Assembly: GCA_000146045.2 (NCBI GenBank) | Contig: BK006947.3 | Coordinates: 704,001-768,000, forward strand | Length of the DNA stretch: 64,000 bases | Direction of reading: 5' to 3' | From: TPA_inf: Saccharomyces | Lineage: Eukaryota | Shown here: piece after piece, positions 49,301 through 51,035 of the stretch | Position numbering within the stretch: the first letter of the stretch is position 1 | How the letters are laid out: each line of letters begins with the position of its first letter | Program-made: the position numbers and the translations under genes | Notes under the pieces: model-generated | Database searches by the model: none | What the model was told of the DNA's origin: nothing | The model's input: the letters and a program-made list of their open reading frames with translations, nothing else

Positions 49301-49700
49301 AAAAATCAATTATATACTCGACACCTTTTAAAGAAGTTATACTGTTGGTTTCGGAATCGGTAGTGGCAAACGTTCCTTTAAAAATAAATTTTGAGCCAGA
49401 TCCATCTGGTGTTGGATTTATCAATTTGTAGGGATGGACAGAACTTATGGCATTGGTCAGCTCATATTCATTCCATGTTCTACCTTGGTCCAAAGAATAA
49501 TAAAATTCAGATTGAAAATCGCCATCTTCCTCTGGATCATATGGGATATACACAATAATATTTCCCAGGTCACCAGTAGCATATAACCCAGAAGAATTAT
49601 GAACAAATCTCCACGTTAAACCGCCATCTCTAGAGATGAAAGTTTTTTGGTCTTCCCAATCGAATTCACTACCGTCGCCAACGGAACCTGTCATTAACAT
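46350..49700 (-). CDS. YNR065C: Sortilin/Vps10-family receptor, C-terminal 1116-aa portion. Repeated BNR/Asp-box S-x-D-x-G-x-T-W/F motifs, a 10CC region, a TM segment and a cytosolic tail.
   Basis: Motifs [39 protein letters not shown] and STDFGKTW. A single [19 protein letters not shown], sits near the C-terminus. Confidence 0.8.
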
Positions 49701-49724
49701 AATTCCGGCAGTAGGATTTGAGAT

Positions 49725-51035
49725 TTAGATACTATAAAAAGGGTTCTGGAGCGAACATCTTTCAGGCCTAGTGATATCACAAGGGAATGAATCTGCATTT
49801 TCCTCGTCAACCACTTTCAAATTTGACCATGTGAGGCCGTTATCAACAGATATTTTAGTTTCATATCTGGCTATCTTTTTATTATATTTTCCTTTGTTAT
49901 GAGAGTAGTCAAAGGAAGGATGAAACGAGCCAATTATTGTTCCTTCTAAGAAATGAGGAGAAGCAATATCAATATAACCAAAGTGAGGATTTATTGTCCA
50001 TTCAACAGGTAAAAATTTCAACCCTTGAGAATCTGATATTAAAATTTCTGAGGGAGCTGGTTGGTCGTTTTTTTCATCTGTGAATATCGTAGATATAGGA
50101 ATGATTATTCTTCCAATAGAATCTTCATAAATTCCATACATATGGACGTGCCGTACTTGAGCAGGTAGACGTGCCTTTTGAAAAGTAGACGCATCATTGG
50201 ATATCCAGATGTCCATGGGTGACATTTCATTGTATCTATCATCTTGTGTCGAAACGATTATATGTGATTTTAATATCTTGTATTGATAAATAATTTTATC
50301 ATTAAACTCATCAAATTTTTTGAAAGTTTTACCTCCATCAGTACTTAAGGCTAATTGTGTATATGCGGCACTTAAGTGACGATCGCTATCGTAACCATGG
50401 TTCGAGAACAAACATAGTATCGAAGCGTCGTTACCCTCAATATCAGAATCCTTGCTAGATTTGACAAAGTTGCAGCTTGAACTTGTTATATGGTCATCTT
50501 CTTTCTTTTTCAAGGAAGGTTCGATATTGTAAAAGGATTCCCCATCGTTGGTAAAGTAAGTTTCATTTTGTATTTGGATATAACCATTGTCGTTTATAAA
50601 GCAAGGGCAATCTGCAATAAGGTACTTTTTATCTGTCGGATGGGTAGCTATAGAGCAAGAAGTACCCAAACGACAGTTTTCAGAGACGGGTATAGTCAGA
50701 GCCCTCCATGATTTTCCACGATCATCGGTGACGTAAAATTTGGGTGATAAATGTATCGAAACAAAAGCCCTGTCCTGTCCATGCAAAGGATCAACAATTA
50801 ATTCGAGAATATGCCCTTCAATTTCTTTGACCGCTTCCCAATTTTCTCCAGAATCGGAACTTATCCACACGACTTGATTATCTAATCTGATTAAACTGTT
50901 GGAATCGTCAAAGCTCTCTAGACTAAATGAATATTCTGAAAGAGTCTCCGTTACTTTGGGGACGAATTCCTCTGCATTGAGTAACGGAATAAAGAGACAT
51001 GTCCAAATCGTGCATATGACTTGGAGTAATATCAT
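49725..51035 (-). CDS. YNR066C: Sortilin/Vps10-family N-terminal fragment (436 aa) with a signal peptide and the first beta-propeller blades.
   Basis: Signal sequence MILLQVICTIWTCLFIPLLNA followed by Asp-box motifs (SSDSGENW, TDDRGKSW, STDGGKTF, SVDNGLTW). Ends at a TAA that is in frame with the YNR065C ATG 24 nt downstream. Confidence 0.75.
   Translation of the reverse strand: MILLQVICTIWTCLFIPLLNAEEFVPKVTETLSEYSFSLESFDDSNSLIRLDNQVVWISSDSGENWEAVKEIEGHILELIVDPLHGQDRAFVSIHLSPKFYVTDDRGKSWRALTIPVSENCRLGTSCSIATHPTDKKYLIADCPCFINDNGYIQIQNETYFTNDGESFYNIEPSLKKKEDDHITSSSCNFVKSSKDSDIEGNDASILCLFSNHGYDSDRHLSAAYTQLALSTDGGKTFKKFDEFNDKIIYQYKILKSHIIVSTQDDRYNEMSPMDIWISNDASTFQKARLPAQVRHVHMYGIYEDSIGRIIIPISTIFTDEKNDQPAPSEILISDSQGLKFLPVEWTINPHFGYIDIASPHFLEGTIIGSFHPSFDYSHNKGKYNKKIARYETKISVDNGLTWSNLKVVDEENADSFPCDITRPERCSLQNPFYSI

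Follow-up and report, generated by a model that had tools for sequence, protein, structure and literature searches.

YNR066C and YNR065C are very probably two halves of one Vps10/sortilin gene, VTH3, broken by a polymorphic nonsense codon in Saccharomyces cerevisiae S288C

The Vps10 domain is a ten-bladed beta-propeller built with Asp-box repeats, and each propeller is followed by a cysteine-rich module called 10CC. In yeast, Pep1/Vps10 and Vth1/Vth2 share one plan: a signal peptide, two Vps10 units (propeller and 10CC), one transmembrane (TM) segment and a tail with a YSSL motif. VTH3 has the same plan. Unlike these relatives, VTH3 of S288C is interrupted at codon 437, and, again unlike them, it lies near a telomere and has unusually divergent alleles (up to about 4% of nucleotides). 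The short portion of Cooper & Stevens 1996 (PMC2120820) that was searched does not mention the chromosome XIV homolog, and the literature searched held no functional data (cargo, sorting) for VTH3.

Split genes of this kind have been described in S288C. YJL107C/YJL108C (PRM10) and YDL037C/YDL039C (IMI1) are likewise adjacent ORFs in the same frame in S288C that are joined into a single ORF in RM or other strains, and they were likewise detected by allele-specific ribosome profiling (PMC4207643; PMC12157680). PRM10 and IMI1 belong to other protein families, and VTH3 differs from them in having multiple paralogs as gene-conversion donors. VTH3 itself is known as a potential null allele (PMC12157680; PMC3595989). 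These reports concern the same locus and the same stop and reach the same one-gene conclusion, from which ours does not differ in substance. A strain comparison at SGD shows the VTH3 ORF as split or whole depending on the strain (PMC3595989), and the stop has been counted among the inactivating stop-codon mutations of S288C (PMC3240633). The ORF is intact in just 30 of 93 strains (PMC12157680), and this published statement is what we use as the frequency of the TAA allele. Thus, the split of VTH3 is a real, already described polymorphic null allele together with an annotation split, and it raises no new question. The details added here are modestly new: three alleles at codon 437, a single-origin core haplotype, GAA as the likely progenitor, flanks that are a gene-conversion mosaic, and where in the fold the stop falls.

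We analysed 64,000 nucleotides from the right arm of S288C chromosome XIV (the window). The features of VTH3 in the window are as follows.

46350..51035, minus strand: whole VTH3 (YNR066C_YNR065C), 1,561 codons and a terminal stop, with codon 437 as the sole interruption
50973..51035, minus strand: signal-peptide-like N-terminal hydrophobic segment MILLQVICTIWTCLFIPLLNA, with a Kyte-Doolittle 19-mer peak of 2.29 at residues 1-19
49725..51035, minus strand: YNR066C ORF, codons 1-436 and TAA
48801..50957, minus strand: predicted Vps10 domain 1 (propeller and 10CC, residues ~27-745), spanning the stop codon, from an AlphaFold model
49725..49727, minus strand: premature TAA at codon 437, which is GAA (Glu) or AAA (Lys) in intact alleles
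49701..49724, minus strand: unannotated spacer of 8 sense codons (ISNPTAGI), inside the family block P-[ST]-AGI[ML]
46350..49700, minus strand: YNR065C ORF, codons 446-1561 and stop
46938..48788, minus strand: Vps10 domain 2 (residues 750-1196) and its 10CC (1198-1366), from Pfam on the intact allele P0001
46830..46886, minus strand: predicted single TM segment (residues 1384-1402), hydropathy peak 2.68
46566..46619, minus strand: tail block GPxYSSL, conserved in the family, with the YSSL motif at residue 1480 in fused numbering

The first-pass annotation had proposed that the two ORFs are one Vps10 family gene divided by an in-frame TAA, with eight sense codons (ISNPTAGI) between this TAA and the ATG of YNR065C. 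Translation bore this out. On the minus strand the junction reads TAT AGT ATC TAA ATC TCA AAT CCT ACT GCC GGA ATT ATG TTA ATG, in which ATC TCA AAT CCT ACT GCC GGA ATT (24 bases, 49724..49701) is the spacer. The TAA at 49727..49725 and the ATG at 49700..49698 are in the same frame. When 51035..46350 was translated in one frame, 1,561 codons were obtained, and the single internal stop was codon 437. The products of the two ORFs match S288C entries exactly: YNR066C is NP_014464.3 (436 aa) and YNR065C is NP_014463.1 (1,116 aa). YNR066C encodes the signal peptide and about the first three quarters of propeller 1. YNR065C encodes the remainder of propeller 1, 10CC module 1, Vps10 domain 2 with its 10CC, the TM segment and the cytosolic tail.

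Database searches revealed that the fused product aligns with its homologs over 100% of the query and with no gap at the junction. The identity is 68% with Pep1/Vps10 and 79% with VTH2. An intact S. cerevisiae protein, P0001, is also 1,561 aa long, covers the whole fused query and is 96% identical. At the level of sequence, the full-length alignment of the fused product to its paralogs is far above chance. The combined length had been put at about 1560 aa and compared with that of Vps10/Vth1; this holds, as the fused protein has 1,561 aa, Pep1/Vps10 1,579 aa and VTH2 1,549 aa. Thus, the earlier view that these are not two independent genes is upheld by an end-to-end alignment of the fused product with Pep1, VTH2 and the intact alleles. 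The same view would have been refuted by a lack of homology between YNR066C and the Vps10 N-terminus. YNR066C alone aligns with Pep1/Vps10 residues 1-456 with E = 2e-133.

Domain searches place the break inside a domain. Positions 2-333 of the 446 positions of the Pfam Sortilin-Vps10 profile match YNR066C residues 55-429, and the profile is broken off at the end of the ORF. YNR065C gives two Sortilin-Vps10 and two Sortilin_C matches, namely the remainder of the cut domain and a second complete Vps10. In the intact allele P0001, PF15902 (Vps10) was found in two stretches with E = 1.4e-216, and PF15901 (Sortilin_C) in two stretches with E = 9.4e-71; the cysteine columns are invariant in the homolog alignment. 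Pfam therefore sees two complete units of Vps10 and Sortilin_C in the intact allele. Asp-boxes run through both ORFs. The first-pass annotation had counted four in YNR066C and at least seven in YNR065C. The strict pattern [ST]xDxGxx[WFY] occurs ten times in all, exactly four times in YNR066C (residues 59, 103, 231 and 396) and six times in YNR065C. With clear degenerate copies included, e.g., SHDGGQTI and TFNDGSDW, YNR065C has at least eight, so both counts stand. The alignment column of Met446, the annotated start of YNR065C, holds L, M, I or V among the homologs, and so this Met is an ordinary internal residue. The "start" of YNR065C is simply the first in-frame Met downstream of the stop.

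The structural model points in the same direction. Residues 1-745 of the intact allele were modelled with AlphaFold at a mean pLDDT of 83.5 and a pTM of 0.81. This model matched 3f6k, the whole Vps10p domain of human sortilin, with E = 5e-32 and TM scores of 0.63/0.70. The loop that holds residue 437, modelled with lower confidence, connects the strands 428-430 and 446-453, and about ten more strands of domain 1 come after this residue and before the cysteine-rich module. Residues 1-745, across the junction, are thus predicted to fold as one sortilin-type Vps10 domain. The N-terminal hydrophobic segment of VTH3 is conserved with the N-terminus of Pep1. Besides the predicted TM segment there is a weaker hydropathy peak of 1.67 in the tail at residues 1435-1453. 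Hydropathy and motif matching by themselves gave a type I topology for the fused protein. The YSSL of the tail resembles the retrieval signal of Vps10p, which is based on a tyrosine. By all sequence and fold criteria tested, VTH3 is a member of the Vps10/sortilin family, with the tandem arrangement of domains that is specific to yeast, and a receptor function is predicted for it.

Intact alleles of VTH3 exist in other S. cerevisiae strains. Three assemblies (L001, L002 and L003) carry an intact gene for 1,561 aa at the syntenic locus, with a GH81 gene at the DSE4 position upstream and an abhydrolase gene downstream; L001, which has the longest flank, also reaches a Zn-cluster gene. The first-pass annotation had proposed to look for a sense codon in other genomes, and there is one in each of these three: codon 437 encodes Lys (AAA) in L001 and Glu (GAA) in both L002 and L003. 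Over 48 nt around the junction the sole difference between L001 and the window is the first base of codon 437. This base, window position 49727, is triallelic in the species, being T (stop), G (Glu) or A (Lys). The same TAA was found in six of the six other split alleles fetched (L004-L009), of which L009 is an environmental/metagenome contig from ENA. In S. pastorianus, the copy of S. cerevisiae type is given in the protein annotation as the downstream form of 1,116 aa. No S. paradoxus orthologue was identified among the protein search matches of the fused product. At the site of residue 437 the paralogs have Lys (the 1,522-aa paralog), Arg (VTH1/2 types) or Glu (Pep1).

The neighbouring GH81 glucanase gene of the window (51746..55099, minus strand, 1,117 aa) varies as well. 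At L006:916-3651 and L008:838-4290 it is called as a 911-aa product or as three pieces (736, 72 and 145 aa). The gene may be disrupted in those two strains, or these may be assembly errors.

We then considered where the TAA came from. Over CDS nt 801-1600 the TAA alleles, i.e., six others and that of the window, are identical to one another. This shared core haplotype in all TAA alleles suggests a single origin of the stop. The nearest intact haplotype over the same nucleotides is that of L002, which has GAA and differs at 2 sites, and every sampled Lys437 allele has a downstream haplotype different from that of the TAA alleles. From these haplotypes it is most likely that TAA arose once, from GAA by a single G-to-T change. 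GAA was preferred to AAA as the progenitor on a small sample, namely three intact alleles compared at the DNA level and five more at the protein level. We also considered reading the ancestral codon from the paralogs; it is ambiguous there (Lys, Arg or Glu), and haplotype sharing was used instead.

Outside the core haplotype, VTH3 alleles differ at up to 195 of 4,686 nt, in dense blocks that match paralogs. In L009, 31 of the 31 variant residues at aa 1467-1561 match VTH2. In L002, 38 of the 47 variant residues at aa 1134-1561 match the 1,522-aa paralog, and when S288C is compared with L001, it is VTH2-like at 21 of 22 sites of aa 1200-1467. These block-wise matches in the sequences point to ectopic gene conversion among the VTH genes. 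The first-pass annotation had called the stop a recent nonsense mutation in a VPS10 paralog. The nonsense mutation is confirmed, whereas its recency is not; TAA is widespread and its flanks are reshuffled. As the flanks have been recombined or gene-converted on both sides, the stop allele is not especially recent.

There are also signs of decay downstream of the stop. The TAA allele L004:5001-9686 (GCA_000976125.2) has a second premature stop at codon 800 (GGA to TGA), inside a paralog-like tract, and this is the single mark of further decay confirmed in DNA. At the protein level, a gene model of 603 aa (P0078) begins at residue 446 and its match ends at residue 1029, which suggests further disruption of the downstream half. 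The second stop of L004 and P0078 are consistent with the downstream half having lost the protection of selection. Cluster members of 1,242 or 1,243 aa, known at the protein level from long-read haplotype assemblies, begin at residue 321 and carry Lys437, and an A7 run occupies codons 320-322. It is possible that these forms reflect an independent upstream disruption or a homopolymer error at the A7 run. We also calculated dN/dS between haplotype groups, which came to about 0.8 before the stop (codons 1-436) and 0.2-0.3 after it (codons 438-1561), with about 5 synonymous versus 17 nonsynonymous changes. It was rejected as a pseudogene test because the divergence is largely imported by gene conversion and the counts are small.

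Published expression data bear on what S288C makes from this locus. Direct RNA-seq showed that one transcript holds both YNR066C and YNR065C (10.1101/2025.09.18.677160), and active Hog1 co-induces both ORFs (PMC4462951). In the allele-specific ribosome profiling of Albert et al., RM has one ORF, and the footprint fold change for YNR065C is infinite (PMC4207643 Table S4). The allele with zero footprints is that of BY, which is of S288C type, as judged by comparing signs with the remaining annotated cases of this table (PMC4207643 Table S4). The footprint difference has p = 2.3e-3 at low counts and is below the inclusion threshold of the binomial test, and the mRNA difference between the alleles is only about 1.9-fold (p = 0.06), with BY at about half the RM level in the hybrid (PMC4207643 Table S4). 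Put together, these data suggest the following course. The S288C locus is transcribed into a single mRNA, as reported in the literature. Ribosomes would stop at UAA and release a fragment of 436 residues that bears the signal peptide and about three quarters of the ten-bladed propeller 1. Such a lumenal fragment would be unable to close the propeller and would probably be non-functional and degraded. The downstream 1,116 codons would be essentially untranslated, according to the literature at low sequencing depth, and the mRNA may be a weak substrate of NMD. The S288C allele would then be a null of a redundant receptor paralog, and the two-gene annotation a by-product of ORF calling in the reference strain.

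We consider it very probable that YNR066C and YNR065C are two halves of one gene, VTH3, broken by a nonsense codon, and that the S288C allele of this dispensable and redundant paralog is potentially null. The first-pass annotation had left room for a read-through site. According to this reading, ribosomes pass the UAA to functional effect, either at a basal level or depending on [PSI+]; some full-length Vth3 would still be produced in S288C, and the stop would regulate its expression. In S288C, as in most TAA alleles, the 1,116 codons after the stop are indeed fully open, and the stop is among the inactivating stops that [PSI+] could in principle suppress (PMC3240633). In addition, the depth of the profiling is low, so that a read-through of a few percent is compatible with it. 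However, ribosome profiling, which had been suggested as a check for read-through, is already published, and it found zero footprints on YNR065C of the BY allele, against detectable footprints of RM (PMC4207643). The stop is also polymorphic (TAA, GAA, AAA), the site holds sense residues in all paralogs and orthologs compared, and the TAA allele L004 has gained its downstream stop at codon 800. The sequence context does not favour it either. Read-through in yeast is promoted by CAR-NBA after the stop and by adenines just before it. Namy et al. in 2001 and Bonetti et al. in 1995 are said to have described this context, and UAA followed by a purine reportedly terminates efficiently. The context here, AGU AUC UAA AUC UCA, has an A after UAA and lacks the CAR-NBA motif after the stop. 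Thus, the zero BY footprints and the UAA-A context do not support the suggested read-through site, and we regard it as very unlikely.

A true gene fission, after which YNR066C and YNR065C would be independently expressed functional genes, is less likely still. It agrees with the two ORFs annotated in SGD and with high-throughput studies, e.g., expression tables, that list each ORF separately. Yet both ORFs are on one transcript (10.1101/2025.09.18.677160), and only 24 nt lie between them, which leaves no room for a promoter. The break falls within a single propeller domain. By hydropathy YNR065C has no hydrophobic N-terminal segment, and its product thus would lack a signal peptide despite consisting of lumenal, cysteine-rich domains. 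Moreover, the BY allele is without footprints on YNR065C (PMC4207643), and intact alleles segregate within S. cerevisiae. An error of sequencing or assembly in the window is effectively refuted, since the same TAA is present in six more independent assemblies, including the ENA metagenome contig. In addition, the protein sequences equal the current RefSeq entries of S288C, and the BY and RM alleles have been functionally distinguished by allele-specific profiling.

The remaining alternative concerns why the null is so common. TAA is the majority state and the ORF is intact in about one third of the strains; a non-neutral cause of the high frequency of the null is therefore conceivable. The loss of Vth3 could have been favoured, the secreted 436-aa partial propeller could be functional, or Lys437 alleles could be revertants of the stop, so that TAA would be something other than a neutral loss. 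We think this unlikely. If any of these non-neutral readings were true, VTH3 would exemplify selection acting on a receptor paralog that is inactivated time and again and then restored through gene conversion.

The preferred reading, i.e., one gene with a nonsense-broken reference allele, is of use chiefly in annotation. The ORFs YNR065C and YNR066C are best handled as a single gene, VTH3, which is potentially null in the reference strain, and high-throughput data collected separately for each ORF (interactions, localisation, deletion phenotypes) need to be read in the light of the split. VTH3 is also a further example of how near-telomeric yeast paralogs turn over through nonsense mutation and ectopic gene conversion.

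Other features were noticed elsewhere in the window. The snoRNA and tRNA genes at 12115..12284 (plus strand), 17938..18211 (minus strand) and 22133..22218 (minus strand) are the H/ACA snoRNAs snR49 and snR191 and tRNA-Leu(UAA). Within a few hundred bases of the tRNA-Leu gene there is a direct repeat of 95 nt with 78% identity (22795..22889 and 23526..23620), the two copies of which may be remnants of retrotransposon LTRs.
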